Positions 14,104-35,175 are shown, counted from the first letter of the stretch. The stretch is 64,000 nt of DNA from Rhodothermia bacterium (GCA_017303715.1 JAFLBZ010000005.1:128511-192510), one strand, 5' to 3'. The notes: a model not told the origin generated them from the letters alone. A program made the numbers and translations.

Positions 14104-14156
14104 GTTGATTAATTCATTTTTTCGGATTTAGTTTTGGCATAAGTCATTCCTGACTT

Positions 14157-14690: not shown

Positions 14691-14765
14691 ATTTTACCTC
14701 AATGATTTAGCGTGTTTAAGGTTATTAGATATAAACATGTTTGTTAAAGTCCAATACTTCCTTAT

Positions 14766-15590: not shown

Positions 15591-15781
15591 AATTGAAATG
15601 AGTTTAATGAATTGAGTTTGTCACAACAAAAGACAGTAAACACTAAAGTACAAGAACAACAACTGTTTTTGTCATGAGATAATTGCGAAGTGAGAGGTAT
15701 TAAGTGAAAAGATATTTTAACAATTAGCATCTTAGTAAACATAAATATCAATTCACGTTTTGTATTTTGAATTATTTCATA

Positions 15782-17236
15782 TTATTCAACCTCCATTTCC
15801 AATATTAAAACAACGAGACCTTGTTCATTTGACTTCACCCTGAATGATATTTTTTCTTGAGAATATTCAATTTTGGCATCAGGAATTCGTCTTGATAGTA
15901 ATACTCTATTAAGTTTTTCTGAAATAGTACCTGTTTTTTCTTGTTTTAGTAAAGACATTATTGCATCAAAATCCAATTTTTCAGTGGAATATAAAACAAT
16001 AAAATAATCCGTTGTCTTAAAGTCACTCGCCTCAAATACATGCTTTTCGCTTGGAATAGCCGTCTCATTTATTAATTCCCCAAAACTTTTATAGTTCATA
16101 TAAGGATCTATATTTTCCTCATATGGAAACAATTTTGTTATTTCACCTCTTAAGTCTGACCCTATAGCATAAACAAATGCAGGTTCACTATTTTCTATTA
16201 CAAGACGATATTGTAATTGCTGGGGAATAGGTTTTTCGGTACGGTAATGACTTTGTATGATGCGAGACAGCCTTGGCGCCCCATATTTTTTATTAGATAT
16301 TGTTTTAATAACCCTTCCATACCTATCTTCAACCCTAAATGAGCCACTTAATGTTTTCGTTGGTGTGGGCAAATGATTGCGTTTTGGAATTAATTCAATC
16401 GCCATATCTGTAAAATGAGCAAAGTCATCGTATTTTATCCACCAAAATCCTTTATCCCCCCACGCTGTTCCCCAGCTGTTCATGATTTCAAAAACGCCTC
16501 CATCCTTAGTATCATTATAACCGACAACCGTCATCGCATGCCCAATAGTACCGCTTTCCCCGACTGGTTTCCATGCCCCAATTTGATAGTTCCTTAAACT
16601 TTCCCATGCCTCACGGGTAAAACTCATTCCAATCATGACCGGATACTTTTGAGCCAGTGATTTTTTAACATTTCCAACTTTTTTAGACAGATCTCTTTCA
16701 TTGATATCAAATAATCGAGCATAGCCTTCTAACTTGGAAAATTCCCAATTCTTAATAGACGGCAACTCATGATCTTGTGGACAATCAGACCTAATTTCTG
16801 CCATACGGGGAGCGCCTACATTTTTTAAGGTTTCTAATATTGGCACCAAATCCCCTCCTTGGCTACACGTTTCATCTGCTGGAAAAGACAGTCTATAGAT
16901 AGACCCCGCATTATACATCTCACGGCTGATCACGTTAGGCGATCGCCAATTTCGATTTTGTGCCTCAAGAATTACACGGGCATGAGCCGCAGACCATGCC
17001 GTACAAGTTTCGTACTCACCTTGATCGCCCGGAGTTGGGGCAAAAGGACGAAGAGAAATTTCTTTTGGCAGATTTTCACCACTCCTTGTGGTAAATGAAA
17101 TTTTTTGAGGTAGTCTTTGATAAGAATCAATTGACAATTTAGTGGTAACAAGCCCCTGGGAAAACAAAAGATTTACCTCTAATGTCGTAGTCAGTATAAT
17201 GACAGCCCAACAAAATATTTTCTTTCCTAAAATCAT
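15782..17236 (-). CDS. Secreted papain-family (C1) cysteine peptidase with a DUF4384-like C-terminal domain
   Basis: A signal peptide is present. In QGEYETCTAWS the Gln is 6 residues before the Cys, as in papain. GHAMTVVGYNDTKDGGVFEIMNSWGTAWGDKGFWWIKY supplies the His and the Asn-Ser-Trp-Gly block. The C-terminus PAFVYAIGSDLRGEITKLFPYE..YFIVLYSTEKL matches the DUF4384 pattern. Confidence 0.8.
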   Translation of the reverse strand: MILGKKIFCWAVIILTTTLEVNLLFSQGLVTTKLSIDSYQRLPQKISFTTRSGENLPKEISLRPFAPTPGDQGEYETCTAWSAAHARVILEAQNRNWRSPNVISREMYNAGSIYRLSFPADETCSQGGDLVPILETLKNVGAPRMAEIRSDCPQDHELPSIKNWEFSKLEGYARLFDINERDLSKKVGNVKKSLAQKYPVMIGMSFTREAWESLRNYQIGAWKPVGESGTIGHAMTVVGYNDTKDGGVFEIMNSWGTAWGDKGFWWIKYDDFAHFTDMAIELIPKRNHLPTPTKTLSGSFRVEDRYGRVIKTISNKKYGAPRLSRIIQSHYRTEKPIPQQLQYRLVIENSEPAFVYAIGSDLRGEITKLFPYEENIDPYMNYKSFGELINETAIPSEKHVFEASDFKTTDYFIVLYSTEKLDFDAIMSLLKQEKTGTISEKLNRVLLSRRIPDAKIEYSQEKISFRVKSNEQGLVVLILEMEVE

Positions 17237-17251
17237 ATTTTTTTTAAATGA

Positions 17252-18688
17252 CTATTTAATATCCATTTCAAGAATCATCATGACCACATCTTTCCCTTTA
17301 CTTTTTGCAGTAAATGACACTTTAGTTTTATCAAACCGGACATTGTCATCTTTTAGGAGACGATCACCCAATACTTTGGATAATCTTTCGGCAAAATTCC
17401 GACCTTGTGTTGTCTTTACTTGGGCAATAATCGCATTAATATCCAGCTCTTCTTTTGAATATAATACCGCCAGATAATCCGTCCCGCCTCCAGCAGAAGT
17501 AGCCTCAAAAGCAAAATCCTCACCGGGTAAAGAGATTTCGTTCTCCTTTCCGGTTATTGCTGCACTAACATAATCCCCATTTTCGTCTTGATATGGAAAC
17601 AATGTATTTATTTCATTGGTTTTATCCCCACCGATAACATACATAAAAGCAGTCTCATTATTTTTAACGAGGAGGCGATAAGGTGTTCCTGCGTTGATTT
17701 GGCTTTTTACTTTGTATTGACTTTTTTGTAGTCCAACTAATTTTGGTGCACCGTACGATAGGTTATATTGCGTATTCAGTTCTTTCCCATTTAGATCAAT
17801 AAGTCTAAAAGACCCCGCCAAATCAATTGTATTTGTTTTTTCTGAAATGGCAATCATTTCATACGCCTCTTTAACATTCAAAGCAAAATCATTGTATTTT
17901 ATCCAGATATAGCCATTATTTGCCCATGCTTCCCCCCACGAGTTCATGATTTCGAAAGCCCCGCCATCTTTTTGGTCATCATACCCGACAACGGTGACAG
18001 CATGTCGCACATTCCCACCGTCCAAGGTTGCTTGCCATACGTGTTTGTTGCTGGGTTTTAATAAGGACTTTCCACAACTGTCACAATATAGACCTACAAT
18101 AACGGGATTACCTTGAGAGAGTGCCAATTTTACAGCATCTATTTTCGCCTGTTGACTGGATTCTGGCTTAAATAGCCGATTGTATCCGGCTATTTTAAAT
18201 CCTTGAGCTTCATTTAAAAAAGGCAACGCCTCGCTCATATCTACACAATCTTTACTAAAACTTCCTTTTGTTGCAATTCCTTTACTTTGGAGATTATCTA
18301 ATGCAGCCCAAATATAGATGCCCTCAGAGCAATTAACATCGGAGGGATCTTTTGTTAGCGCATAAATGAATCCTGGAGAGAATGCTTTTTCTGATATTGT
18401 GGACGGGTTACTTATTTTCTCTTGCCGTGCATGAAGGATGGTTCTTGCTGCATACCCCACAGACCATGCCGTGCAGGTTCCGTAATTCGCTTGATGCCCG
18501 GGCTTTGGTGCAAACTGTTTAATAGATGCCCTCTCTGGTACTTTATCATAGGTATTCGCTGTTCTTGGTGCTGAGTAAGCGATTAAACGATATTTATTCT
18601 CGTCATATTTTGCCCCTGTCACATTAAATTGCGCCGATACAGCAGGGAGAGTAAACAGGAAAAATATTAATAATAAAAGCTGTTTCAT
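17252..18688 (-). CDS. Secreted papain-family (C1) cysteine peptidase with a DUF4384-like C-terminal domain (tandem paralogue)
   Basis: The signal peptide is MKQLLLLIFFLFTLPAVSAQ. Catalytic motifs are QANYGTCTAWS and RHAVTVVGYDDQKDGGAFEIMNSWGEAWANNGYIWIKY. The C-terminus is TAFMYVIGGDKTNEINTLFPYQ..DYLAVLYSKEEL. Confidence 0.8.
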   Translation of the reverse strand: MKQLLLLIFFLFTLPAVSAQFNVTGAKYDENKYRLIAYSAPRTANTYDKVPERASIKQFAPKPGHQANYGTCTAWSVGYAARTILHARQEKISNPSTISEKAFSPGFIYALTKDPSDVNCSEGIYIWAALDNLQSKGIATKGSFSKDCVDMSEALPFLNEAQGFKIAGYNRLFKPESSQQAKIDAVKLALSQGNPVIVGLYCDSCGKSLLKPSNKHVWQATLDGGNVRHAVTVVGYDDQKDGGAFEIMNSWGEAWANNGYIWIKYNDFALNVKEAYEMIAISEKTNTIDLAGSFRLIDLNGKELNTQYNLSYGAPKLVGLQKSQYKVKSQINAGTPYRLLVKNNETAFMYVIGGDKTNEINTLFPYQDENGDYVSAAITGKENEISLPGEDFAFEATSAGGGTDYLAVLYSKEELDINAIIAQVKTTQGRNFAERLSKVLGDRLLKDDNVRFDKTKVSFTAKSKGKDVVMMILEMDIK

Positions 18689-18760
18689 AAGAAATCTATT
18701 TTGAGTGATTTAGTGGCATTGGGAACGATAATCAGGATAACATTATTGCTCCCTTAAAAC

Positions 18761-18778
18761 ATCCCTTATAATAGGGGT
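18761..18778. promoter_or_regulatory. Candidate operator, ATCCCT-N6-AGGGgT (one mismatch), ~80 nt upstream of the C1 peptidase pair
   Basis: atccct tataat aggggt lies in the 18689-18920 intergenic region. The same half-sites and spacing occur at 24006, 24207 and 29283. Confidence 0.45.
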
Positions 18779-18872
18779 TTTCAGATTATGGTTCTCGCCA
18801 TTTCGCAGTACTTTTTTTACTTTCCAAATGTTATGAAAGAAAAGCAATGTATCCGAACGTGGTGATATCAAG

Positions 18873-18909
18873 TTTTGGGGCATACTACCCGCAGTAAAAT
18901 GCCCCAAAT
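18873..18909. terminator. Strong hairpin just downstream of the caspase-PEGA gene
   Basis: tttggggcat-N15-atgccccaaa is a 10-bp perfect stem 12 nt after the stop at 18921 (minus strand). There is no clear U-tract on the minus strand, so terminator function is uncertain. Confidence 0.4.
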
Positions 18910-18920
18910 AATTTTCATCT

Positions 18921-20891
18921 TTAGAAAGAAGCTACAATACTAGCGCCTTTGATTGAAGGATTAAGGTGTATAGACACCTTTACCCGCTCACTTAAAACCT
19001 TTTCTAAATACTTGTTATAGTCCATCTTTACAATGCGACCAATTTCAAAGATTGCAGATAGACCCCAAATAGCGCCTAAGCTTGGGACAGCGTATTGTGC
19101 AATATTGTATGCACTTTTTACGTTAGCATTTTGCTCCTTTTCCAATTTTGCCGCTTCTTTGTTGTATTGATCTTCAGCAAAGGGCCGTCCATATAAAATG
19201 AGACCTGCTGCAAAACTTCCTCTTAAGAGAAATTTAGTACCATGGCCAATGATGTCTTTGCGAAATCTTCCTCTGGCCTCTTCCTCTGGTGTAATTTCTA
19301 GCCGGACTGTTTCTTGCATTGTTTTTGATTCTTTAACATCAACGACTAAAAGTTTAGGGGTATGTTTAGGCTTTGTCAGAAGAATCCGTTGTTCCCCGTA
19401 CCCTAATTCAATATTGAGGGGTGTTTTCCCGTGAACTTTATCTTTTAAGGTGACAACTGCTCCATCTGGGATGGTATATAATTGGAGTAGTGTAGATATT
19501 TTTTCCAGAACGAACTCGAAAGATTGTTCATCTTGTGTTAAGTCTATTGAAGTATTTTGGATAGGCTTGTATCCTGAAGCGTCAACGGTAATCACATAGC
19601 GCCCTTTTTTAAATTCCTTGCTTGTAGAACCTGTTGAGATCAATTCATTGTTGATCGTAATACTTGCATTTTCTGGTACCACTTTAAATCTAACAAGAGT
19701 AGTTTCTCTTGATAGATTAATCTCAACAATTAAATCCTCATCCGGTTTTATCTCAACTTCTTTGTATTCTGTATTATACCTATCCTTACGCACCTCAAAT
19801 TTATACAAGCCGGGATCTATCCTATATTCAAATGTATTACTTGTTGCATAACCTAATTGTTTACTATCTAAAAAAATGCGTGCATTATCAACGTTAGTTT
19901 TCAAAGTAATTTTTGACTTAAATGCTTGTTTTGAACTAACATCCATAAGTATAGGATTTTCAACAAGCATTTCCTCCAATCTTCGAGGTGTTAGTTCGAA
20001 GAAAAAGCTACCGTTATCCGGACTAAATGCACCTTCGATTGGAGTTTGTTTTCCCCCTTTCATTTTGGCGTAATAAGGTACACGAGCCATGATATATTGG
20101 AAGAGTTCTTTGGAAATAACGATATTATCCTTATTTTCGTCAGCCTTACCTTTTTCAAGCCCCTCGAGTAGAACATACATCAAAGCACTGTGTTGCCAAT
20201 CTGCAGACTCAACAACTTCTTCATCCGCAGAACCTGCTGTTATAATTTCGCGACTTTTTTGAGACCAAACATTTTTCAAGTATGCACGTGTAAACTCTCC
20301 TCCACTACCACTCCTTGTTGTCGCCAGTCCACTATAACAAGCATCTATTAAAAATAGAACATGTTTGGGAATAAACTGGTCAGAAAAGTCTCTAAGTTCA
20401 TTCATTTTAACGGATGTACCAAAGAGAGACTTCGTATCAACGTCATGATTTAACAAAAAACCGAGTGGTTGATCCTTTCTACCACCTGTCTGGCCATGAC
20501 CAGCATAATAGATGAGTAAGGATGAATTTTCGGAAACGCTGTCGTTTGTAAATCTTTCAAGAGTAGAAATAATATTTGATCTCGTAGCATTTTCATCTAA
20601 CAAGATAAATATATTATCTTCTTTATATCCAAATTTATCCTTCAATAAACGCTTCATTGCTACAGCATCTTCTGCGGCATAAGTTAAAGGTCTAACATTG
20701 GAATCTTGATATTTATTAATTCCGATCAAAACAGCGTATCTCTCATCGTATGTTGAAGCCATATCTACTGATGATAAGACCCCTTCCGTAGAACTGCCTG
20801 GTGGTAATGTGTTTGGATTATCTTGTCCTAATACGTCTTGCGACTTCAAGGCTATCAATAAAAAAAACAACGTTAGTATGTAAGATTTCAT
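18921..20891 (-). CDS. Secreted caspase-like (C14) peptidase + three PEGA domains + C-terminal domain ending in Phe
   Basis: A signal peptide is present. The caspase motifs are YAVLIGINKY, the His motif LLIYYAGHGQ and the Cys motif LFLIDACYSG. The PEGA-like units are NARIFLDSKQLGYA, ENASITINNELISTG and DGAVVTLKDKVHGKTPLNIELGYG. The last residues are IKGASIVASF. Confidence 0.8.
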   Translation of the reverse strand: MKSYILTLFFLLIALKSQDVLGQDNPNTLPPGSSTEGVLSSVDMASTYDERYAVLIGINKYQDSNVRPLTYAAEDAVAMKRLLKDKFGYKEDNIFILLDENATRSNIISTLERFTNDSVSENSSLLIYYAGHGQTGGRKDQPLGFLLNHDVDTKSLFGTSVKMNELRDFSDQFIPKHVLFLIDACYSGLATTRSGSGGEFTRAYLKNVWSQKSREIITAGSADEEVVESADWQHSALMYVLLEGLEKGKADENKDNIVISKELFQYIMARVPYYAKMKGGKQTPIEGAFSPDNGSFFFELTPRRLEEMLVENPILMDVSSKQAFKSKITLKTNVDNARIFLDSKQLGYATSNTFEYRIDPGLYKFEVRKDRYNTEYKEVEIKPDEDLIVEINLSRETTLVRFKVVPENASITINNELISTGSTSKEFKKGRYVITVDASGYKPIQNTSIDLTQDEQSFEFVLEKISTLLQLYTIPDGAVVTLKDKVHGKTPLNIELGYGEQRILLTKPKHTPKLLVVDVKESKTMQETVRLEITPEEEARGRFRKDIIGHGTKFLLRGSFAAGLILYGRPFAEDQYNKEAAKLEKEQNANVKSAYNIAQYAVPSLGAIWGLSAIFEIGRIVKMDYNKYLEKVLSERVKVSIHLNPSIKGASIVASF

Positions 20892-20951
20892 GAAATTAAA
20901 GATTTAAAATGTGATCAAGAAGTTTTGTAATAAGTGTCAGACTCAGACTAT

Positions 20952-22649
20952 TTAATCAAGTACTTTAACCAGTCTAAAGCCAATATTGGCATTTTTTTTA
21001 TTGGGGTCAAAAAAATACCTATGCTCTAACCCTTTTGCTTCATGTATAAAGGAGCCTCCACGGATTACTTTAAGTGGGTATCCAGTTTGTACATTATTAA
21101 CAGGGTCTATATTTGGCGCATTTTGATAGTATTTACCATCATACCAATCCATTGTCCATTCCCATACATTGCCAATTACGTCAAAAATTTCCCAATTATT
21201 TGGCGGGTAATTTCCAACTGACATACTACTACCTACTCCACTTATAGACGTCGTGCAATCGGCACAATTTGCTCTACCAGTGCCTATGAATTCTCCCCAT
21301 GGAAAACGATCCACACTTCCAGCACGTGCTATATATTCCCATTCAGCCTCGGTAGGTAATCTATAGCTATGTATATTTTCTTTAGCATTTAACCGCTTGA
21401 TAAATTCTTGAACTTCATACCAAGATATATTTTCAACTGGATTCGATAGGTTACTTTTATTTTTACTGGGGTTATCTCCCATAACCATAAGCCATTGTTC
21501 TTGTGTAACTTCATATTTCCCTACATAGAAATCATTTGTGATTATAATCTCCTTTCGTGGTGACGAATCAGATTTTTCATCTTCCAGACTTCCCCTCATA
21601 AACACACCTTTATCTATCAAGACAAATTCTATACCGTAATTATTTTTAATATATTTGGGATATATATTTTCTTTTTTTGGATTTTTTACATTTTTTTTAT
21701 TGTTAATGGTAATGTTTATTGAAGGTTTAGGATCAATAAATGAAACTTGTGTTTTGGGTTTAACTAATGGCTCTTTTGGAGTATTTAAATCAATTTTTTC
21801 TTTGGCTTTTGGCTTAAAATAAAAATCGGAAAAGAGAATTCCTGAGCAGTCTGGGATTTGACCTCTTTCAGTAATGCTGCTTACTTTAACCGAAACTTTT
21901 CTACAGATCTCGTCCACTCCTACCCCTTCCTCCAAAATAGCGCCAGCAAGAGCCTCCGTAAAAACACCATTCTGGGCATCTTCGTATTCCCGTGCAGTTC
22001 CATTTGGACGGGTTCCGTAGATAATTTTCGCATTAACGACTTGATCCAACCCGACATTAAGACCACTTTGCCACCCAGCAACTCTTAGGGCTGGCAGTAC
22101 ACGACAAGCATCTAGAATAAGAATTTTAGTTATGTCTTTGGCTTTCTCGGCAAGTTTCCGTTGGATGTCTTCAATTGAGAGCGAGCCTTCAGCCATTCTG
22201 TCTGGTCTGTCAGTGGCGGCTTCAATGCCGGCCAGCCAATTCCCTGTTCCATATTGAAAACCATGGCCAGCAAAGTAAAAAACAACCGCTTCTTCATCTC
22301 CTTTAACCTTGCCCATAAACTGATCTACAGCATTTTGCATGCCCGACCTTGTTTGATTTACCGCCTTGATAACCGTAAAACCCAAATTCCTTAACGTCTG
22401 CTCCATCAATAACACATCCTCTTCAGGCTTACTCAGTTTTGGTAGGTAGCGATATTGTTCATTTCCCATAAGGAGGGCAAGCCGCTTATTAGCGCCTGTA
22501 GGCTTCACAATGGGCGCTCTCTCCACAAATTTGCGGCTTTCCTGGGCTGAGACTGTTACATAAACACTAAAAAACAATATATAAAAAGCTTTATTTATCA
22601 ACTTTATCAAGACTTTTAATCTTAAAATACGCAGATTAGCATTATACAT
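20952..22649 (-). CDS. Secreted caspase-like (C14) peptidase fused to an FGE/SUMF1 (formylglycine-generating-enzyme family) domain
   Basis: A signal peptide is present. The caspase motifs are LALLMGNEQY, VVFYFAGHGFQ and ILILDACR. The C-terminal FGE-type motifs are FYVGKYEVTQEQW, PVENISWYEVQEFIKRLN, YRLPTEAEWEYIARAGS, NVWEWTMDWY, VIRGGSF and GFRLV. Confidence 0.8.
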   Translation of the reverse strand: MYNANLRILRLKVLIKLINKAFYILFFSVYVTVSAQESRKFVERAPIVKPTGANKRLALLMGNEQYRYLPKLSKPEEDVLLMEQTLRNLGFTVIKAVNQTRSGMQNAVDQFMGKVKGDEEAVVFYFAGHGFQYGTGNWLAGIEAATDRPDRMAEGSLSIEDIQRKLAEKAKDITKILILDACRVLPALRVAGWQSGLNVGLDQVVNAKIIYGTRPNGTAREYEDAQNGVFTEALAGAILEEGVGVDEICRKVSVKVSSITERGQIPDCSGILFSDFYFKPKAKEKIDLNTPKEPLVKPKTQVSFIDPKPSINITINNKKNVKNPKKENIYPKYIKNNYGIEFVLIDKGVFMRGSLEDEKSDSSPRKEIIITNDFYVGKYEVTQEQWLMVMGDNPSKNKSNLSNPVENISWYEVQEFIKRLNAKENIHSYRLPTEAEWEYIARAGSVDRFPWGEFIGTGRANCADCTTSISGVGSSMSVGNYPPNNWEIFDVIGNVWEWTMDWYDGKYYQNAPNIDPVNNVQTGYPLKVIRGGSFIHEAKGLEHRYFFDPNKKNANIGFRLVKVLD

Positions 22650-23319
22650 TTAGAATTACTTTAATTTTGAAGAAAAAATTTATCAGTAAAACAGATAAGA
22701 CATACTATAAAGAAGACAGTAATATCGCTTTATCTACCATAATAAGATAAAAAAACCAGATTAACAACATCAAACAAACCCGTACCATGAATATTAAGTT
22801 AACATTATTCTGTTTTATTAAGATATTTTAAATAGAAAACAAGGTCTATCAGCACCCAGTTTATATGTAAAGGCACGTCCTTGTCTTGGATAAATACTTT
22901 AAATTAAATGACTTAATCACCAGCAAACATGTCCGTCGAGCGGTGCGGAAAGAAAATCGCAATAAACACTTGTAGCGAATGTTTAGTGCAAATTACAGTT
23001 ATGGCATTAATACCAATTTGGATATTGGCCTTCTTGACTGGTTAGAACAAAATGGTGGGCAATCGTAGAAAAAAGCAAAAGAGTATTTCTATGTGTTTAC
23101 TGCTTATTATAAAAAAATACAAATATTATCTTTTTTAAGCATTACTTCCGCCGATGTCACATTTATGAAATACTCTTTTGCTTAAGCGCAGTGACAAATC
23201 AGTACGCAAGAATTTATTAATTTTATGTTTTTTTAATAATTTTGCTACATTCAGAATAAGATATCCCCTATTTAATGTCAAGGATATAAAGAACACAACT
23301 CTACAATTTCTTTTAATCC

Positions 23320-23967
23320 TCACAATCTTTTGGGATGAATCAAGCCCTCTTGGATTGCTTTTACGACAGCTTCCACGTTCGAGCCAGCATGTAGCTTCTG
23401 GTAGATATTTTTAACATGGGAATTAACGGTATGGGTACTTATGAACAGGGTTTCTCCGATCTCTTTTTGAGAACGTCCCTTTGCCATCTCTTCCAAAACT
23501 TTTTTCTCTGCATTGGTGAGTTTTTGCCCTTCAGACCGATTCTCGGCCTTTCGGAAAGATGACAACACCCGCTGCGCCACTCTTGGCGGCATAGGCATAC
23601 CTCCCCCCACAGCCAAGTCAATCGCGGCAAGCAAATCCACATCCGATGCATCCTTTAGTAGATAGCCAGATGCGCCTTCTTCCAATGCCCTAAAAATGGA
23701 CTGGTCATCATCATTTATCGTGAGCATTACGATCGTCACCAGTGGCCATTTCTTTTTAAGATGGCCAACACAAGAGATGCCATCCATTGCCCCCATATTG
23801 ATGTCCATCAAAATAACATCTGGCGATTGTTGGTTCTTTTGTGCTTCAAGTGCTTCCTCTCCCGATGCAAAAGCGCCAGTACAGATCAGCAATTTCGAGT
23901 CCTCAATCAAAGAAAGTAGGCTTTCTCGGTAGCGTTTATTGTCTTCTACGGTCCAAATCCGAAGCAT
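23320..23967 (-). CDS. Response regulator, NarL/FixJ family (REC + LuxR-type HTH)
   Basis: The REC domain shows VEDN..DVILMDINM..VMLT. The HTH is LTNAEKKVLEEMAKGRSQKEIGETLFISTHTVNSHVKNIYQKL. Confidence 0.88.
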   Translation of the reverse strand: MLRIWTVEDNKRYRESLLSLIEDSKLLICTGAFASGEEALEAQKNQQSPDVILMDINMGAMDGISCVGHLKKKWPLVTIVMLTINDDDQSIFRALEEGASGYLLKDASDVDLLAAIDLAVGGGMPMPPRVAQRVLSSFRKAENRSEGQKLTNAEKKVLEEMAKGRSQKEIGETLFISTHTVNSHVKNIYQKLHAGSNVEAVVKAIQEGLIHPKRL

Positions 23968-24005
23968 CTTTTTTCTTTAGAATAGGGAACTTGTATGTTC
24001 ATCAA

Positions 24006-24023
24006 ATCCCTTAATTTAGGGAT
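24006..24023. promoter_or_regulatory. Candidate operator, exact ATCCCT-N6-AGGGAT, ~45 nt upstream of the RR gene
   Basis: aa atccct taattt agggat tt sits in the RR / lipoprotein-HK divergent intergenic region. Confidence 0.5.
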
Positions 24024-24206
24024 TTTTTTATTTTCAATATAGGTTACGGGTTAATCAAGTTGATTGAAGGCAGTTTGAATGTCATGACTGGGTTTTGCAT
24101 CCCATTGTCTTTCGTTGTGACCATCCAGCAGTAGATACGTGTTTTTCTCCTCTACAAATATTCATGACCAACCCCTTATTTCTTTATTTGCATCAATAGC
24201 CCTAAC

Positions 24207-24224
24207 ATCCCTTATTTTGGGGAT
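24207..24224. promoter_or_regulatory. Candidate operator, ATCCCT-N6-gGGGAT (one mismatch), ~50 nt upstream of the lipoprotein-HK operon
   Basis: atccct tatttt ggggat at 24207-24224. The downstream ORF starts at 24272. Confidence 0.45.
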
Positions 24225-24271
24225 TGCAAATTATGTTACTTCGTTTGTAAATTTCCCAAACCCACAAAATC

Positions 24272-24955
24272 ATGCACTTTGTTTTTTTCTACACATATTT
24301 TGGTTTATCCAGCAGTATAGGCTTGATATTTCTGTATATACTTTCTGGTTGTAGTCATCCAATACAAACAAAGACCTTTACTAACCAAGGAAACTTAGCG
24401 GATAATGATACTTTAGAGGTTGCCTCTGCTTCTTTGCTTAGAATTGAAGAGGGATTAGAAGCTCAGGATGCTACACGCATTCGTGAGGGGATCGAGACCC
24501 TTATGCAAAACAACATCTTGATTATATCTACCGAGGTACGTCCAAACGGTCAATTTACCTATAAAAACCTTCTAAACGAAGCCAAATCTTTCCGTAACAC
24601 TCCACCTGATGAGTTAGCAAAGATAGACAGATTGCTGGAGGTTTTAGAAAGGCCACAACAACCATTATTAATGGTAAATGTTTGTCGTGCCAAACTTACC
24701 AAGAAAAATGAGACCTCTTCCAATTGTACCATAAAAACCTTCAGAAATGGAGATTTGAGGGTTTTAGTTCGGACGGTACCCCAAGACATTGAGTGGCGTT
24801 TAGAGGGCAACAATCTTACTTCTTGCACAGGTTGTTGGCAAATCTGGAAAGGCTCTGGGAGAATCCAATGGATCACGCAAAAAAACCAAACACATCTTGT
24901 TTTGATACGCAATTTAAGTTCAGTGTCTGGCACATTCCTGCTTACATGGAACTAA
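24272..24955 (+). CDS. Putative lipoprotein, translationally coupled to the sensor kinase
   Basis: The hydrophobic N-terminus has the lipobox ILSGC. Its stop overlaps the kinase ATG (ATGGAACTAA, 24946-24955). Confidence 0.5.
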   Translation: MHFVFFYTYFGLSSSIGLIFLYILSGCSHPIQTKTFTNQGNLADNDTLEVASASLLRIEEGLEAQDATRIREGIETLMQNNILIISTEVRPNGQFTYKNLLNEAKSFRNTPPDELAKIDRLLEVLERPQQPLLMVNVCRAKLTKKNETSSNCTIKTFRNGDLRVLVRTVPQDIEWRLEGNNLTSCTGCWQIWKGSGRIQWITQKNQTHLVLIRNLSSVSGTFLLTWN

Positions 24956-27906
24956 GAAATTATGTCTATTTTTGCTATTTTTTCAGTTTAATCGGCAGCA
25001 CCTCCATTTTACACGCCCAGTCGAAGGAGTATTGGGGGCTTCACCGTGTTCAAGACAAGGCTACACTGCATTTGGCAGAATTGGGCATTAATGCAATGGT
25101 AGATACAGACAGTGGCGACCTTTGGTTAGCCTCTTCAAAAGGTTTGTTTCTACATAATGGCTATACATTAGAGCAGTTTTGCAGTCAGATTGAAGGGGTC
25201 ACTGCTTTAACAAGATTACCAGATGGCCGGATTTTTGCGATGGACATGCACAATATGGCCTTTCTGGTTTATCCCACCCAGAACGATTCATTTGCTTGCT
25301 CACCCCTCTTTACCTTGTCTGATACAAACATCCTACGAGTTGTCGCAAGCAAGAACCACAATGGCTTTTATTACTGGCTGGCTTCAGAATACAATGTTCA
25401 TATCTATCGTAACAACACCAAAATCGCTAAATTGACCTTTCCGAATGGCGTAAAAGACATCAGGTACTTAGGTAGTGTTGTATCAGTGGTTTCGGGGCAA
25501 GAAATTTATTTTTGCCACGAAAATGGTCGTTGTGTTGTCCATACTTTTTTCAACAATGTCACCCATTTCTATAAAATAGGCGGGGATCAATGGTACGGAA
25601 CCGAAACCAATGGGCTGTGGATACAAACTGGTAAGACCATACGACAAGTGCTAAAAGGAAGTATTTTCCATCTTCACCCCGCTGCAAACAACCCTTCCAC
25701 TTTATTCGCCGCTACAGATGAAGGTATTTTTTTAGTCAATGCCCGCAACCATCATACCACTACCCTTAGTACGGGAAAGTGTTCTCTTGGCTTAACAGGA
25801 GACCATGTAATTTGGTGTGCAGATACACAAAACCTATTCCGCGCCATTATAAACCCTGATGGATTCCGGTTTTATTCCAAAGAAAATAGCTTACTCCATT
25901 CCTCTGATGTTCGAGACATTTCGGAATTAGATAACGGCCAAATAGCTATTCTGAACGGCTCGAATATAAGTTTCTTTAATCAAGGGAAACTACAATTCAA
26001 TTTAGAAACAAAAGACCAGTGGATCACCAAAATAGAACGAGCAACACACAATGAGATATGGATATTGTCCGAAGAAAAAAACTTATCATTATACAATTAT
26101 GTTGACCATAAAATGAGAACATTTAAGCCATTGCCTTTCCCTCCTAACGAAATAGCAGACCTTTTCTCAACACCATCCGGAGTCGTTTATATCGCTTCAA
26201 CAAAGGGTCTTTTCATCTTAAAAACAGATGGCTCACTCCAACCAAGCACCTTTAGACCCGCCGATATTCGGTTGGTTACTCTTGATAGGGAAGACCTTAT
26301 TTTACACCTGCAAGATGAAGGAATCTGGCGATTTCGCCCAAAAGAAAACACCTATCACCGCATAATCTCATTTCCTTGTGGATCGTCTGTACGTGGGATG
26401 TTTACGGATGCTCAAAGACGAATATGGATTGGAACAGAAAAAGGCTTATTTTATCTACAAAAATCTTCCTGTGAACAAGCTCCTCATTGGCCAAAAGAAA
26501 GAAGGGTACGTGCCCTATCTGGAGATGCAAAGAATGGGCTATGGGTAGTCGGAGAAAATACATTTTTTTCGCCAGAACTCTACCGCATTAATCTGTCCAA
26601 ACCCAGTTGGTTTCCAGTGTCTCTACCTTGGTTAAATGACTATACTGGATACCTACACAACTTGCCAAGCATACAAGGAAAAAATGGTCATATTTATTTT
26701 TTAGGACAACTCGGATTACTCGAAATAAACACACAAATAAATCATCATGATCTTATTGACTTTTCCGGCATTCAGCTTTTTGCACGGGATAAAGTGGTGC
26801 CCATCAAACAAGTAGCCCATAATGTTTTTGAAGTTAGAGAAGTTTTGCCACATTACCAAAACGACTTTTCTTTCTCCTTTCGTTTTCTTGACCATGAATC
26901 CGTTTCGATGGCGTATAAGTTGGTGGACTGGATGCCAAATTGGGCTTTACAAAGCGGAGATACCCCACTTAAGTTTGGAGGTTTATTGCCCGGAACTTAC
27001 GAACTTTATGTTTATATATCGCAACGAAATGGCCAATGGAGTTCAAAACCATTACAGATAAAATTTCAGATAAACCCGCCTTGGTGGATGCAACCCATTT
27101 CACGATTGCTTTTCTTCTCGGTCTTGGTTTTATTGGGGTGGTGGGGAAACAATCGGTGGAATCATGCCAAACGAAAACGCGAGGAAAATACTTTGGCCCT
27201 CCGAAAAAGCCGCCAAGAGGCCAAAGAAATGGCCATAGTAGCAGAACGGGAAAGATTAGAAGCAACCGAAAAATTACGAGAAGCCGCATGGCAGGCCGCC
27301 GAAACGAGGCGCAAAGACCGAAAACAATGGGAACAAGACCTCCACGATGAGCTTGGTGGACAACTCGGTGCCATAAAAAACCGATTACAAGTCCTAAAAA
27401 AACAACCAGAAGCCCAACCCCTAAAAGATACCCTTATCGCCATCGTTGATGAGGTGACCGATGCCTCAAAACAGCTTCGCCATTCCCGTTGGATGGTTGA
27501 CCCAACCGCTGATTATGCAGAAGCAGTTGTCGGTAGAATTGTTGGAATGGCGGTCGAAATGCTTTCCGGCCTCCGGCTCGACTTAGACTACCCCGAAGAA
27601 GTTCCGAACTTTGGAATTGATTTTAATGACCGAAAGAATCTGATTCTCGCCATTAAAGAGGCATTTCATAACATTTTAAAACATGCCCATGCAAGTATTA
27701 TCCACCTCTTTATACGTCTTCAGGATGGCGTATTATACGTTTCAATTCAAGATGATGGTAGCGGTTTTGACCCTTCCTTGATTTCATCAGGTGGTCACGG
27801 CCTTCGCAATATGCAAGAAAGATTGGCCGCATCCGGTGGGAGGTGTACCTTGACTTCAATCCCTAAAAAGGGTACAAAAATTGTTTTTGAACTGCCTCTA
27901 AAATAA
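24946..27906 (+). CDS. Sensor histidine kinase: periplasmic beta-propeller/Y_Y_Y-type sensor + TM + HisKA_3 + HATPase_c (NarX/LiaS class)
   Basis: The ATG at 24946 gives the signal peptide MELRNYVYFCYFFSLIGSTSILHAQ. The TM segment is LLFFSVLVLLGWW. The H-box is DLHDELGGQLGAI. The ATPase motifs are HNILKHAHA, DDGSGFD and GGHGLRNMQERL. Confidence 0.85.
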   Translation: MELRNYVYFCYFFSLIGSTSILHAQSKEYWGLHRVQDKATLHLAELGINAMVDTDSGDLWLASSKGLFLHNGYTLEQFCSQIEGVTALTRLPDGRIFAMDMHNMAFLVYPTQNDSFACSPLFTLSDTNILRVVASKNHNGFYYWLASEYNVHIYRNNTKIAKLTFPNGVKDIRYLGSVVSVVSGQEIYFCHENGRCVVHTFFNNVTHFYKIGGDQWYGTETNGLWIQTGKTIRQVLKGSIFHLHPAANNPSTLFAATDEGIFLVNARNHHTTTLSTGKCSLGLTGDHVIWCADTQNLFRAIINPDGFRFYSKENSLLHSSDVRDISELDNGQIAILNGSNISFFNQGKLQFNLETKDQWITKIERATHNEIWILSEEKNLSLYNYVDHKMRTFKPLPFPPNEIADLFSTPSGVVYIASTKGLFILKTDGSLQPSTFRPADIRLVTLDREDLILHLQDEGIWRFRPKENTYHRIISFPCGSSVRGMFTDAQRRIWIGTEKGLFYLQKSSCEQAPHWPKERRVRALSGDAKNGLWVVGENTFFSPELYRINLSKPSWFPVSLPWLNDYTGYLHNLPSIQGKNGHIYFLGQLGLLEINTQINHHDLIDFSGIQLFARDKVVPIKQVAHNVFEVREVLPHYQNDFSFSFRFLDHESVSMAYKLVDWMPNWALQSGDTPLKFGGLLPGTYELYVYISQRNGQWSSKPLQIKFQINPPWWMQPISRLLFFSVLVLLGWWGNNRWNHAKRKREENTLALRKSRQEAKEMAIVAERERLEATEKLREAAWQAAETRRKDRKQWEQDLHDELGGQLGAIKNRLQVLKKQPEAQPLKDTLIAIVDEVTDASKQLRHSRWMVDPTADYAEAVVGRIVGMAVEMLSGLRLDLDYPEEVPNFGIDFNDRKNLILAIKEAFHNILKHAHASIIHLFIRLQDGVLYVSIQDDGSGFDPSLISSGGHGLRNMQERLAASGGRCTLTSIPKKGTKIVFELPLK

Positions 27907-28013
27907 CACGGGGAATGATTATGCCATATTTAGCACCAGCAGGACAACATCTTTTTACCTATATTCCGGTGTTTGTGCCTCTCTAAAGCCTCTTTCTTAC
28001 CTGTGCTGTGTTG

Positions 28014-28835
28014 TCCTTCAGGGCTAAAGCCCAATGCGATTCGGGGCCTACTACCCCGCCCTAAAGGACGGAGTTAATGCCTTCCTCCACTTTGCATCTC
28101 TGCCTAGCTATTGCTTTTGGGTTGCTCTCACCTCCGCCCTGAAGGACGGAGTTAATGTTTTGGTGTTTTCCTCTTCGCGCTCTTGGGTGATGTTGCAAAA
28201 CGCCTTTTAACCCCATGCTTCAGCGTGGGGTTGCCTGCGACGATCAAACGCTCGGCTTTAGCCATGACAATTCGTAGAAATTCGTCATCAAACGCTCGAC
28301 CCAGCCCCGTAGGGGTGGCCTCTTCGTAGAATGCCATTCCCAAGCCACGCCCAGCCCCGTAGGGGTGGCCTCTTCGAAGAATGCCATTCCCAGCGCACAG
28401 CATTCGCCTTTTGCCATCGTTCAGGGCTAAAGCCCAATGCGATTCGGGGCCTACTACCCCGCCCTAAAGGACGGAGTTAATGCCGTGCTCCACTTTGCAT
28501 CTCTGCCAAGCTATTGCTTTTGGGTTGCACTCACCCTTGCCCTGAAGGACGATGCACGGCATACACGTTGGGCATCTTTCAGGGCTAAAGCCCCTCTTTT
28601 ATTGGTTGCTCTCACCTCCGCCCTAAAGGACGGAGTTAATGTTTTGGTGTTTTCCTCTTCGCGCTCTTGGGTGATGCTGCAAAACGCCTTTTAACCCCAT
28701 GCTTCAGCGTGGGGTTGTCTGCGACGATCACACGCTTGGCTTTAGCCATGAATATTCGTAGAAATTCGTCATCAAACGCTCGACCCAGCCCCGTAGGGGT
28801 GGCCTCTTCGAAGAATGCCATTCCCAGCGCACGGC
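28014..28835. repeat. Composite hairpin-rich repeat, two tandem copies (~400-420 nt each)
   Basis: ttcagggctaaagcccaatgcgattcggggcctactaccccgccctaaaggacggagttaatgcc starts near 28017 and again near 28421. Each copy continues into ttttggtgttttcctcttcgcgctcttgggtgatg..aaccccatgcttcagcgtggggtt..ccagccccgtaggggtggcctcttcg. The sub-motifs are small palindromes (gggctaaagccc, ccgccctaaaggacgg, aacccca-N10-tggggtt). Confidence 0.9.
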
Positions 28836-29282
28836 AAAGCAACCTTGATGAATCAGGAAAATCCGGACATGAAAGATGCGACTTGCCGAGATTTGTTACA
28901 TCATCGCATATCCCAGAAATAGCCCGTTTGCCCTACTTGTGGTCTATTAAACCGGATTTCCCTGCATCATTTTTGCCGAAAGAGAAAGTGCTTTATGAGA
29001 GGTGCATTTTGATCTTTTTATCCTTTAATAAAGATATTATGTATTAAAACGATTAAATAAACGGTATTTTGATCATATATTTAAAACCTAAAGTTACCAC
29101 CCTACCATCCATCAGTAATCATGAACAACCAACAGCTTAATATTTTTAAACATCCGTTGAGAACAACATATACACGGCATTGTCTTCAATATTTGTGTAG
29201 CGGCATAAGGTCAATATCTAAAGGACACGCATGAAACTTTATACCGCTTTGACCTAAGTTACTGCCAACCCCTTCCTTGAGC

Positions 29283-29300
29283 ATCCCTCGAATTAGGGAT
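29283..29300. promoter_or_regulatory. Candidate operator, exact ATCCCT-N6-AGGGAT, upstream of the caspase-PKD gene
   Basis: atccct cgaatt agggat lies ~290 nt upstream of the ATG at 29590. An extra half-site, aaaatccctcc, occurs at ~29332. Confidence 0.45.
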
Positions 29301-29589
29301 ATTTACCTGTAAGTATTGCGTATAAAGGTCAAAATCCCTCCTTTAATAAAACAAGCAAACCAATATATAACAACAACTTACAACCTCACCTCTTTCTGAT
29401 TTGAATGTCAATATTTATTTTTAATGGTGCTTGGTCGCCGTTCAAATCTTGTTTTTGCCATCTGTTCTTGCTATTTTGGCACTACATTTTGTATCTCCCA
29501 CCAGATCATACGCAGTTTTACCGTGTTGGCACTGTCATCACAGCCCCTTCGCAGGAGCAATTCCGCTACTTCAATACTGGTCTTTTGTC

Positions 29590-32202
29590 ATGTTGAAATT
29601 TACGAATAGAACCCGCCTCCCTTGGCATCTTGTATATTGCCTTTTTACCATCGGCTATGTTTTGATCCCTGAAACACTTTTGGCCCAACCAGCGCCTAAG
29701 GCACCCGGCGTAGTCCGTATAGACAAAAAGGTCATGTTGGTGGTCAGTAATCAAAACTATGATGACCAAAGGTACAAGCTCAACAAACCCCACGCCGATG
29801 CAGACAGCATCTCATCGGTCTTTACCAAATTAGGCTATCAGGTAATTTCAGCCAAAGATGTGACGGAGAAAGAATTGGCGCGGAAGATCAATGAATTCCG
29901 TACACAAGCAAGGGGTGCAGATATCATCGGATTTTTTTATTCCGGACATGGTTTTAGGTTGCCCAATAACTCAAGAAATTTCCTGATGTTACGAGACTTC
30001 GACGCGACTTCCTCCGATGAAGCGGAGGCGAATAGTGTATCCATCGAGTCCATTCTCCAGAAAATGAATAGTGCCTCAACCAATGCCAAAAAACTCATCT
30101 TAGTGGATGCGTGCAGTTCGGAGCTAACGTTTGTACAAAAAGGGGATGAAGGCAGCAAAAGCGACATAGATTTTACGGGTATTTCCGAAGTGACCATCCT
30201 CACCGCCACCCAGCCGCTTAATGTGGCCTTAGAGCGTGACGACCAGCCCAATGGCCTTTTTACCGCCGCCATTCTAAAGCATATTCGCAAACGCGGGATG
30301 GAAATCTCCGAATTTATGAGGGCCGTAAAGCGGGATGTGGACGAAGCCTCCGGCGGCAGGCAATCCCCTTGGCAACAAGGCGGGTTTTCCAATGCCTTCT
30401 ATTTGGCGGGCGATCCCTGCTTGGGGAACATACCCAAGTTCTTAGAGGCCCCCAAATACCCAACCAGCCTGAAAGCAGGGGAAAATGGGTTTTTCCAAGT
30501 CCGGTCTAACGGCAACAACGTCGTTATAAATTGGGACTTTGGGGATGGCTCGGCCTTTAACGGAGCCAATATTCCCCACATCTATACCAAAGAAGGGACA
30601 TACCAAGTAACCGTAACCGCCTCCAATACCTGTGGTGAAGACCAAACAAGTTTCCCCATCACAGTTCTCCCACCGCCCAATCCCTGCGAAAACAAAGCCC
30701 CCAATATTACCCGTTTGGATGTCCTCGCGAATGCCCCAACCGTGAATGAAAACGTGCGGTTCGAGTCCGAGGCCACAGGTACAGACTTAGACTACCTCTG
30801 GGATTTTGGGGATGGGAAGCAGGAACAAGGCCGGATTTTATGGCATAGCTTTACACAAGCCGGAACCTATATCGGAAAACTCGTGGTTTCTAACCAATGT
30901 GGCAAAACCGAAAAACCTTTTAGTGTTGTCATTAAACCACCTACCGATCCCTGCTTAAACAACAACCCCGCTATTCTTCAATTTGAGGTTCCCTCTACCG
31001 GAACCACCGCAGACATCTTGCGCTTTGCTGCAAAAGGGACTGGAACGGGATTAGAGTACGAATGGGATTTTGGCGATGGGCTTTCCGATCAATCCGTAAA
31101 TCCGGTTCACAGCTATACCAAACCCGGAAAATACACCGTAAAACTCACTATAAAAAATCAGTGTAGCGAGGCCACACAATCCAAATCCATCCAGATTACC
31201 CCGCCCATAGATCCTTGCAAAGACAACGAGCTACGCATCAACCGCTTGCTCATTCCAGAAAGCATCTCAGAAGGTGTACCCGTCACCTTGGGGGCTTCCG
31301 TAACAGGCCGCGATTACCTGAGCCTTTGGGATTTTGATGACAACACTCCCAAAGAACGGTCTGCGGCGCCTACCCATACCTTTGCAAAGGCGGGCCGCTA
31401 CAAACTGACCTTGGCCGTCACCAATACCTGTGGTGGTGTAGATACCCAAAGCCGCATAATAGAGGTGAAGCCCAATCCATGTAGGGACAAAAAAACCGTG
31501 GTTGGGGACTTGGCCCTCCCAGCAACCGCAGAGGAAGGCCAAACCATTAAGTTGGCTATTACGGCCCCGCAACCAGACCTCACCTATTCTTGGCAATTTG
31601 GCGACGGAAAAACGGCCCAAAGCCCACAAGTAGAACACCGCTATGAACGTGCCGGACGTTATACCGTGCGGGTAACGGCTAATGGAACTTGTGGCGCGGA
31701 TACCCAGCAACGAACAATCGAGGTTAAACCCCATCCTTGTGCGCAAAACAAACCCGAAGTTTGGGGCTTAAAACCCTCCTCCATCATTATCACAGGCCAA
31801 CCCGCCACATTTAGTGTCCAAAGCAAGGGCAAAGACCTAAAAATTACTTGGGACTTTGGGGATGGAACCACTGCCGAGGGCCTGAACCCCAGCCATACCT
31901 ACCAAAAAGAAGGGGAATACACCATAAAAGTGGTGGCCGAAAACGATTGTGGCGTCTCCGAGGCGGCAAGCCTAAGCCTAAAAGCAAAGATGCCTCCAAG
32001 TGTGGTGGTAAAACCAGAGGTTAAAACCCCACCTCCCTCCCCCAAGACACTCCCAACCAAAAAAGGACTGGGTATGACGGCTAAATTAGGCAGCGGGGGC
32101 GTACTGGCGGCTGTCCTTACCTATGCAGTGGTGAAGCTCACCGGAGGACAACCCAACAATACCCCAACCATTGCACTACCACCACCCCCTCCCACAAACT
32201 AA
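29590..32202 (+). CDS. Caspase-like (C14) peptidase + six PKD domains + C-terminal hydrophobic anchor and Pro-rich tail
   Basis: The ATG at 29590 gives a signal peptide ending LLAQ, whereas the ORF call starts at a TTG at 29431. The caspase motifs are VMLVVSNQNY, IIGFFYSGHGF and LILVDACSSE. WDFGDG..H.Y...G.Y.V.L...N.CG units occur six times. The C-terminus is GGVLAAVLTYAVVKL followed by PPPPPTN. Confidence 0.8.
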   Translation: MLKFTNRTRLPWHLVYCLFTIGYVLIPETLLAQPAPKAPGVVRIDKKVMLVVSNQNYDDQRYKLNKPHADADSISSVFTKLGYQVISAKDVTEKELARKINEFRTQARGADIIGFFYSGHGFRLPNNSRNFLMLRDFDATSSDEAEANSVSIESILQKMNSASTNAKKLILVDACSSELTFVQKGDEGSKSDIDFTGISEVTILTATQPLNVALERDDQPNGLFTAAILKHIRKRGMEISEFMRAVKRDVDEASGGRQSPWQQGGFSNAFYLAGDPCLGNIPKFLEAPKYPTSLKAGENGFFQVRSNGNNVVINWDFGDGSAFNGANIPHIYTKEGTYQVTVTASNTCGEDQTSFPITVLPPPNPCENKAPNITRLDVLANAPTVNENVRFESEATGTDLDYLWDFGDGKQEQGRILWHSFTQAGTYIGKLVVSNQCGKTEKPFSVVIKPPTDPCLNNNPAILQFEVPSTGTTADILRFAAKGTGTGLEYEWDFGDGLSDQSVNPVHSYTKPGKYTVKLTIKNQCSEATQSKSIQITPPIDPCKDNELRINRLLIPESISEGVPVTLGASVTGRDYLSLWDFDDNTPKERSAAPTHTFAKAGRYKLTLAVTNTCGGVDTQSRIIEVKPNPCRDKKTVVGDLALPATAEEGQTIKLAITAPQPDLTYSWQFGDGKTAQSPQVEHRYERAGRYTVRVTANGTCGADTQQRTIEVKPHPCAQNKPEVWGLKPSSIIITGQPATFSVQSKGKDLKITWDFGDGTTAEGLNPSHTYQKEGEYTIKVVAENDCGVSEAASLSLKAKMPPSVVVKPEVKTPPPSPKTLPTKKGLGMTAKLGSGGVLAAVLTYAVVKLTGGQPNNTPTIALPPPPPTN

Positions 32203-35046: not shown

Positions 35047-35108
35047 ACGTTTTTTGGGTTCATTACAAGCTATGGATCATCGAGTTTTGGACAACGCCAT
35101 ATGCGTTA

Positions 35109-35175
35109 TCCTTCAGTGCTAAAGCCTTTTGATTCTTGGTTGCCATGTCATCGCCCTAAAGGACGGAGTTAATGA
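35109..35175. repeat. Single degenerate unit of the hairpin repeat family
   Basis: ccttcagtgctaaagcc..ttggttgccatgtcatcgccctaaaggacggagttaatg matches the 28575-28640 unit. Confidence 0.75.

Follow-up and report, generated by a model that had tools for sequence, protein, structure and literature searches.

Introduction

This article concerns a stretch of 64,000 nucleotides from a metagenome-assembled genome labelled Rhodothermia bacterium (GCA_017303715.1 JAFLBZ010000005.1:128511-192510), hereafter the window, and an 18-bp palindrome, ATCCCT-N6-AGGGAT, of which it holds four copies. They are gathered in 10.5 kb of DNA surrounding a NarL-type two-component system whose response regulator (RR) and histidine kinase (HK) are encoded divergently. 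An earlier sequence-only reading of this DNA had proposed that the palindrome ties the NarL/LuxR-type regulators encoded here to the protease genes in their vicinity. In the present analysis the four palindromes are interpreted as putative operators of the adjacent RR (23320-23967), which would regulate its own locus through them, probably as an activator, and a rough probability of 0.6 can be given to this reading.

The palindromes and the genes around them

When the window is scanned for ATCCCT-N6-AGGGAT with at most one mismatch, four sites are found:

Site 1, 18761-18778: ATCCCTTATAATAGGGGT, one mismatch, 72 nt upstream of the first C1 peptidase gene
Site 2, 24006-24023: ATCCCTTAATTTAGGGAT, exact, 38 nt upstream of the RR start codon
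Site 3, 24207-24224: ATCCCTTATTTTGGGGAT, one mismatch, 47 nt upstream of the lipoprotein-HK operon
Site 4, 29283-29300: ATCCCTCGAATTAGGGAT, exact, 289 nt upstream of the annotated ATG (29590) of the caspase-PKD gene

The genes that matter to the argument, with the domain content given by a Pfam scan of the window proteins, are the following:

10375-13503, + strand: one-component protein of 1042 aa, membrane-spanning, with Reg_prop, Y_Y_Y and GerE domains
15782-17236, - strand: C1 peptidase with DUF4384, papain-like and secreted, paralogue of 17252-18688
17252-18688, - strand: C1 peptidase with DUF4384, papain-like and secreted, first gene of the pair
18921-20891, - strand: C14 caspase-like peptidase with PEGA domains (caspase-PEGA)
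20952-22649, - strand: C14 caspase-like peptidase with an FGE-sulfatase domain (caspase-FGE)
23320-23967, - strand: RR with REC and GerE helix-turn-helix (HTH) domains, NarL/FixJ family, the proposed binder
24272-24955, + strand: 227-aa lipoprotein-like protein, no family match, first gene of the kinase operon
24946-27906, + strand: HK with Reg_prop beta-propeller, Y_Y_Y, HisKA_3 and HATPase domains
29590-32202, + strand (longest open reading frame (ORF) from 29431): secreted C14 caspase-like peptidase with six PKD domains (caspase-PKD)

Sites 2 and 3 share the 304-bp control region from which the RR gene and the lipoprotein-HK operon diverge, their centres being 201 bp apart. The HK gene probably starts at 24946 and thereby overlaps the lipoprotein gene (227 aa) at its stop codon, so that these two genes are considered to form one operon. 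Counted from the centre of each palindrome, the ATG of the gene that follows is 81.5 nt away for site 1 (C1 peptidase, 18688), 47.5 nt for site 2 (RR, 23967) and 56.5 nt for site 3 (lipoprotein, 24272). For site 4 the distance is about 298 nt to the ATG of caspase-PKD (29590), or 131 nt to the TTG of the longest ORF; the protein is 870 aa long in the NCBI annotation, which corresponds to a start at 29590, and it has a signal-peptide-like N-terminus there. Such N-termini are found on the window peptidases in general. The C1 peptidase pair (15782-18688) is the predicted target operon of site 1, which is placed downstream of the hairpin that comes after caspase-PEGA, and caspase-PKD (29590-32202) is the predicted target of site 4. 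No palindrome lies upstream of caspase-FGE or caspase-PEGA, and the sites thus accompany only two of the four protease transcription units.

How far the motif exceeds chance

At one mismatch or fewer, the four sites compare with 0.08 expected in the window, and none of 100 shuffled sequences reaches this number. The motif was however chosen after the sequence had been read, and the search space must be taken into account. In Markov-1 simulations covering all 6-Nx-6 palindromes with x from 0 to 12 and a minimum of three G/C per arm, 122 of 200 simulated windows (61%) contain some family with at least four matches, which makes the raw count weak evidence. It is quite another matter to obtain at least two exact matches within a total of at least four, as 4 of 400 simulations show this, a number that falls to 1 of 400 when x is fixed at 6. 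A long duplicated repeat at 27.9-28.9 kb is the sole source of the other G/C-containing families that have this property in the window itself. Furthermore, non-coding DNA makes up roughly 17% of the window and contains all four sites, for which the probability by chance is about 8e-4. The simulations and the intergenic placement together make a chance origin very unlikely.

The excess is confined to well-matched copies. Sites with two or three mismatches are not in excess in the window (23 against 24.4 expected), and a search for weaker sites with the 8-base core reveals none further in its intergenic DNA. The core CCCT-N6-AGGG, at one mismatch or fewer, has 12 matches in the window, the intergenic ones being these four only. 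The bare hexamer occurs 33 times, 9 of them intergenic, without intergenic enrichment; since it is unremarkable by itself, it is the paired arrangement that stands out. No site is present in the 8.4 kb to the left of the window.

When the four sites are aligned with 40-nt flanks, conservation extends over about 20 bp only. Interspersed copies of the repetitive extragenic palindrome/miniature inverted-repeat transposable element (REP/MITE) type are therefore ruled out, and with no similarity in their flanks the sites are not copies of a mobile repeat. Another strain (L091), at 98.4% identity to the window, lacks 87 nt (window 29083-29169) about 115 nt upstream of site 4, and its palindrome is whole.

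What the sequence-only reading had said of the sites themselves stands. The motif search returns exactly its four sites, two exact and two with one mismatch; all of them are intergenic, and comparing intergenic with coding DNA singles out the same four among the core matches. The other intergenic regions of the window, including the one upstream of caspase-FGE, hold none. Their rarity relative to chance is upheld as well, with the reservation that it is the corrected frequency (4/400), and not the raw count, that carries it. The two regulators it had named both possess a GerE/LuxR HTH according to Pfam, and the 18-bp inverted repeat has the geometry usual for the NarL/LuxR family.

Some smaller elements accompany the palindromes. 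A half-site-like TCCCTT (18750-18755) precedes the left arm of site 1 by 12 nt, and an ATCCCT (29334-29339) flanks site 4; these may be auxiliary half-sites for higher-order binding of the RR. The 10-mer CCAACCCCTT is present at 24167-24176 and 29267-29276, i.e., 40 nt ahead of site 3 and 16 nt ahead of site 4.

The response regulator and its kinase

The accession of the RR is MBN8587516.1, and the genome has locus tags of the J0L94_ series. By its domains the RR fully belongs to the NarL/FixJ family. Its receiver domain is recognized by Pfam (Response_reg, E 5.9e-23), and the complete set of receiver residues (E8-D9, D55, T83 and K105) can be read from the translation. The HTH matches GerE over residues 149-204 (E 1e-17), with STHTVNSHVKNIYQKL as recognition helix, and a partner kinase with HisKA_3 and HATPase_c domains, HK 24946-27906, is encoded divergently from it. 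The closest solved structures are VraR/LiaR-type 5hev (E 2.6e-29) and NarL 1a04 (E 2e-25), with DevR (3c3w) as a further detectable relative. Within the family, the RR is neither NarL proper (NF007935, 132.9 bits against a cut-off of 250) nor the GacA/UvrY equivalog (104.9 against 280 bits), and all of its listed matches to the NCBIfam equivalogs NarL, GacA/UvrY, UhpA, FimZ and EvgA remain below their cut-offs.

The motif beside distant homologues

As no orthologous locus could be found, footprinting is impossible, and the motif was sought instead beside distant homologues of the RR, none of which exceeds 43% identity in species-representative genomes. The CCCT-N6-AGGG palindrome travels with these distant homologues, as seen in three settings.

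The first is Acinetobacter, where ATCCCTAATTCTAGGGAT is located about 63 nt upstream of the homologous RR gene. L043, L050, L052 and L059 have an exact site, L042 one with a single mismatch and L041 one with two mismatches. The regulators are 33-36% identical to the window RR, with SKFTVDVHVKNIYQKL as recognition helix where the latter has STHTVNSHVKNIYQKL. In an alignment of four diverged Acinetobacter species the right half of the site, AATTCTAGGGAT, is invariant, and the flanks vary more, most of all in L042. These NarL-type regulators (L043; L042, L050, L052, L059) are apparently orphans. In Acinetobacter sp. ANC 3813 (L043, 4264-10519) the neighbours of the RR gene and its exact palindrome are a transposase fragment and a cluster of chaperone-usher pilus genes, and no characterised Acinetobacter regulator matching it was found in the literature. 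ANC 4169 is a second Acinetobacter with an exact copy.

The second setting is that of the Chitinophagaceae and related Bacteroidota, in which the homologous RR gene comes after that of a kinase of about 990 aa. The two kinases checked (L006 and L008) have the same Reg_prop/Y_Y_Y/HisKA_3 architecture as the window HK, which is 23% identical to that of L008 (E = 5e-22). Chitinophagaceae loci contain two to three palindromes each, placed between HK and RR, about 70 nt after RR, and about 170 nt before HK, the last of these in L005 and L008. ATCCCTCCATTGAGGGGT, ATCCCCTCAATTGAGGGAT and TTCCCTCATTTGGGGGTA are examples from Bacteroidota, along with an exact ATCCCTACTTTAAGGGAT in L025. Over 32 Bacteroidota loci whose RR homologues are 36-43% identical, exact CCCT-N6-AGGG occurs at 0.61 per kb at the ends of the RR genes, as against 0.02 per kb in the other 451 kb. 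A C-rich inverted repeat 15-90 nt before the RR start is found in 26 of 46 loci, for a background of 20%.

Finally, metagenome contigs were scanned for the exact pattern ATCCCTNNNNTTAGGGAT, yielding 120 loci (764 kb) in which most matches are expected by chance. NarL-type RR genes are present in six of these loci, and in three the site stands at an operon boundary. By a rough estimate, not a measured one, such close adjacency would arise by chance in about 0.1 locus per 120. In L203 an RR gene ends 27 nt before the exact motif; the recognition helix that it encodes, AHTVNTHVKHIYEKL, is almost that of the window RR, and an extra ATCCCT half-site is found 11 nt upstream, much like the TCCCTT placed 12 nt before site 1. 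In L120 and L192, which are one species, the exact motif is 66 nt upstream of an HK-RR operon. There the palindrome (L120 5745-5762, L192 2339-2356) separates this operon, whose kinase is of the TPR/HisKA_3 type, from a divergent outer-membrane beta-barrel gene; the organism is low-GC and flavobacteria-like, and a GGGGGAT half-site is located nearby. No paper describing this palindrome for any regulator was found in the literature.

Among the closest homologues of the RR, the one in L084 (2999-9732, 47% identical) comes with a kinase with Reg_prop (faint), Y_Y_Y and HisKA_3 domains. This kinase-RR locus is next to FGE-sulfatase and sulfatase genes, echoing the caspase-fused FGE domain of the window, and P0004, among these closest homologues, adjoins a Y_Y_Y/HisKA_3 kinase and FGE-sulfatase/sulfatase genes.

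Promoter spacing and direction of control

Would the RR turn its targets on, or off? The homologous loci give some indication. At loci of the Chitinophagaceae type, the centre of the palindrome is situated 31-32 nt upstream of the TA of the Bacteroidota -7 box, and this spacing is kept in three classes of promoter, namely before HK, before RR and after RR. The promoters of RR and of the gene that follows it have the box as TAnnTTTG, and the HK genes of L005, L008 and L009 are preceded by the near-match TAnnTTTA. The palindrome centre in these loci would accordingly lie at roughly -42 from the transcription start. In the window, a -7-like box, TAAATTTC (24248-24255), starts 32 nt from the centre of site 3. 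By analogy with the homologous systems, and because their palindromes sit near -42, the RR most likely activates transcription at these sites.

The reverse, in which the RR binds the same palindromes as a repressor, so that autoregulation would be negative and the proteases would be de-repressed once it leaves, is unlikely, and is nonetheless the best of the other explanations. The short distances from site 2 to the RR ATG (47.5 nt) and from site 3 to the lipoprotein ATG (56.5 nt) suit it well, as with leaders of at least 30 nt both sites would overlap the core promoter, and scans for sigma-70 and -7 box sequences do not allow the window promoters to be assigned. Repression is at odds, however, with the fixed spacing in the Chitinophagaceae, which puts the palindrome at the -33/-35 position typical of activators, with the lack of a TTG -33 element in the promoters inspected (L011 and L019), and with the same 32-nt spacing between site 3 and TAAATTTC.

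The probable binding protein

If the palindromes are operators, the protein that binds them could still be another than the RR: either a factor whose gene lies beyond the window, for instance a second NarL-type RR or a CRP-like dimer, or the one-component LuxR protein (10375-13503). CRP-like dimers also use palindromes with an N6 spacer. The 1042-aa protein does have a GerE HTH and resembles the one-component regulators of the BguR type; our view is limited to 64 kb of the genome; and the RR beside the motif in L120/L192 has a different recognition helix. Against the one-component protein, no site is found near its gene, and SPKGVEKSRYRVKKKL, its recognition helix, does not resemble the helix found in the RR subfamily. 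Moreover, the motif recurs in L006, L008 and L043, where the ORF lists include no frame of that size except the HK. As to a CRP-like binder, there is no Crp/Fnr-type gene among the window genes scanned against Pfam. Binding by a protein other than the adjacent RR is thus distinctly improbable, and since the same palindrome stands beside homologous RR and HK genes, the adjacent RR is favoured over the one-component protein.

There is little to recommend the view that the palindromes act as nucleic-acid hairpins, be it as terminators, attenuators or RNA processing sites. Each of them can indeed fold into a hairpin of 6-8 bp (-5 to -10 kcal/mol), site 2 looks terminator-like on the + strand, with a stem and then a T-run, and both mismatches would be G-U wobbles on that strand. 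These hairpins are weak, however, and the T-run is seen at site 2 only. Sites 2 and 3 are found between divergent genes, where there is no transcript to terminate, and at site 1 the wobble strand is antisense to the target gene. The CCCT/AGGG arms are conserved across phyla without compensatory changes, and the fixed spacing to the -7 box fits a promoter element. Intrinsic terminators in particular are rejected, the only site with a T-run being one that lies between divergent starts. Chance coincidence, with a motif picked after seeing the sequence, gains from the 61% of simulated windows in which some G/C-containing 6-Nx-6 family has at least four matches, but is very unlikely given two exact and two near-exact copies in 4 of 400 simulations, their wholly intergenic placement (about 8e-4), their clustering in 10.5 kb around a two-component system, and the independent recurrence of the motif beside homologous systems.

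The proposed regulon

The reading that the four palindromes are operators of the adjacent RR can be developed into the following scheme. The beta-propeller/Y_Y_Y HK (24946-27906) would sense an extracytoplasmic ligand and phosphorylate the RR, a dimer of which would then occupy the 18-bp palindrome with one GerE HTH on each ATCCCT arm. Through sites 2 and 3, the divergent region between RR and lipoprotein-HK would be autoregulated. Sites 1 and 4 would couple the C1 peptidase operon and the caspase-PKD operon, together with its type IX secretion cargo, to the same signal. Binding by the RR, the way in which it controls its targets, the extent of the operons and the kind of signal are inferred.

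A number of observations weigh against this scheme. To begin with, about 290 nt separate site 4 from the start codon annotated for caspase-PKD, and this is the weak point of the regulon picture. The Bacteroidota -7 box TAnnTTTG is not enriched upstream of the window genes, and sigma-70-like sites in the window are at background (33 against 26.6 expected); with no promoter enrichment in the window, the choice between activation and repression rests on analogy. Besides, the RR has no orthologue: a search of 5.8 billion proteins gives a nearest homologue that is 49% identical, and the other contigs of the organism, at 98-100% DNA identity to the window, carry no evolutionary signal. The three closest homologues examined (P0002, P0004 and P0036, 47-49% identical, on GC-rich contigs) have no such motif beside them, and most exact metagenome matches are not next to an RR gene. 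Several loci whose regulator has the same HVKNIYQKL helix are also without a palindrome, and the L120/L192 regulator has a palindrome and a different helix, from which it follows that the relation of helix to motif is a loose one.

How then does the sequence-only reading emerge? It appears right in kind and is partly supported. The link of the palindrome to protease genes holds for the C1 pair and for caspase-PKD, the latter with its site some 290 nt away, and does not extend to caspase-FGE and caspase-PEGA, so that the protease claim is narrower than its title. Of its two candidate binders, the adjacent RR is retained, the palindrome recurring beside homologous RR/HK genes, and the one-component LuxR protein is not, nothing linking the motif to it. 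Taken as comparative genomics for an uncharacterised two-component family, the regulon is a solid prediction.

A wider proposal can be put forward only tentatively, and it is doubtful as it stands: ATCCCT-N6-AGGGAT, with its core CCCT-N6-AGGG near -42, might represent an undescribed broad specificity class of NarL-type regulators, which here would wire a surface sensor to secreted proteases. Such a class may span Rhodothermia, Chitinophagaceae, the flavobacteria-like contigs and Acinetobacter.

Bacterial caspase homologues are usually discussed in an intracellular, cell-death role. If the wider proposal were true, the window would encode a signal-induced extracellular “caspase” arsenal made up of secreted caspase-like and papain-like proteases. 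If the regulon itself is right, the secreted orthocaspase and papain-like proteases found here would be induced by an external signal, and a motif as well as an activator-type promoter architecture would become available for an uncharacterised family of beta-propeller/Y_Y_Y kinases and NarL-type regulators, which occurs in Bacteroidota and Rhodothermia, with related regulators elsewhere. The 18-bp motif is a simple handle for reporter assays and for DNA affinity purification sequencing (DAP-seq). The prediction leaves the accepted view of how such systems work unchanged.

Comparison with known systems

One parallel is provided by NarL and NarP of E. coli, whose 7-2-7 sites consist of the heptamer TACYYMT in inverted repeat. 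In both cases a NarL-family RR is paired with a HisKA_3 kinase, and a dimer binds, or here would bind, an inverted repeat. The half-sites also resemble the NarL heptamer TACCCCT in composition and polarity, with a C-run and then a T towards the centre, mirrored by an A and then a G-run. The dimensions differ, since the palindrome described here is 18 bp long (6-6-6) whereas that of NarL is 16 bp (7-2-7), and the CCC/GGG triplets are 8 bp apart instead of about 4. The sensor differs as well, being a beta-propeller/Y_Y_Y protein and not a NarX-like one, and the predicted targets are secreted proteases and not respiratory genes.

The 6-N6-6, 18-bp geometry is that of the GacA/UvrY/SirA box, TGTAAG-N6-CTTACA, also bound by a dimer of a NarL/FixJ-family RR; its half-site sequence is however unrelated, and the targets of GacA are small-RNA genes. 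CCC/GGG triplets as the specificity core of a NarL-family palindrome are shared with NreC (TAGGG-N4-CCCTA) and with DosR/DevR (GGGAC-N-GTCCC), although in those the G-run comes first, giving the opposite polarity, and the spacing is different. VraR/LiaR regulators, which include the best match among solved structures, resemble the system predicted here in having autoregulated operons with a HisKA_3 kinase. Their sites are unrelated in sequence, and their sensors are intramembrane kinases of Firmicutes.

The sensory side recalls yet other systems. BguR-type one-component regulators combine a beta-propeller, Y_Y_Y, a membrane-spanning segment and GerE (bioRxiv 10.64898/2026.01.10.698779), and this is the overall architecture of the window protein 10375-13503. 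The window HK has the same periplasmic Reg_prop/Y_Y_Y module as BguR and the hybrid two-component systems of Bacteroides; unlike in these, the sensor is split from the DNA-binding output, as a classical HK with a separate NarL-type RR. The BguR motif is given in a figure only (bioRxiv 10.64898/2026.01.10.698779), and comparison with the palindrome is not possible.

Neighbouring genes and other features

Three further features belong to the transcription units discussed above:

13516-15590, - strand: three genes for small lipoproteins of unknown family, which follow the C1 pair downstream and are oriented like it
23066-23183, - strand: terminator-like hairpin (-32.6 kcal/mol) whose closing stem has 17 bp, with UUUUUU after it
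32251-35046, + strand: protein with beta-propeller and fn3 domains and a sorting tail for type IX secretion, encoded 48 nt downstream of caspase-PKD

The lipoprotein genes (13516-15590) are presumably co-transcribed with the C1 pair, and the beta-propeller/fn3 gene (32251-35046) would similarly share a transcript with caspase-PKD. The hairpin (z = -2.9 relative to shuffled sequences), which is closed by a perfect inverted repeat of 17 nt, is found 137 nt past the RR stop codon and is likely to be a terminator. It is located in an otherwise empty 670-nt gap before caspase-FGE and parts the RR gene from caspase-FGE/PEGA, and a hairpin of this strength after the RR gene makes read-through from the RR promoter into these two genes unlikely. 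Known RNA families and tRNAs are absent from the window.

The gene for the one-component protein (10375-13503) adjoins that of a type IX secretion protein containing a carbohydrate-binding module (8080-9999), which is variable between strains (L088). In the L082 contig (SRR8926553), position 22642 is joined straight to 20543, and most of the caspase-FGE gene is gone; this junction is either a strain deletion, by recombination of two paralogous caspase genes, or an assembly chimera. G+C content is 0.33-0.39 across the C1/caspase cluster (14000-24000) and 0.44-0.47 on either side, and the protease cluster may be a horizontally acquired island.

Between the HK and caspase-PKD genes lies a REP/MITE-like repeat (27950-28850) in two tandem copies of about 400-480 nt that are 94% identical; the one ORF scanned in this region, 28667-29047, has no Pfam match. 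A fragment of the repeat is found at 35100-35181, after the type IX secretion cargo gene. The repeat is made of small hairpin units, TTCAGGGCTAAAGCCC, CGCCCTAAAGGACGGAGTTAATG and CCCAGCCCCGTAGGGGTGG, and explains the other palindromes that are over-represented in the window, AGGGCT-N2-AGCCCT and ACCCCA-N10-TGGGGT.

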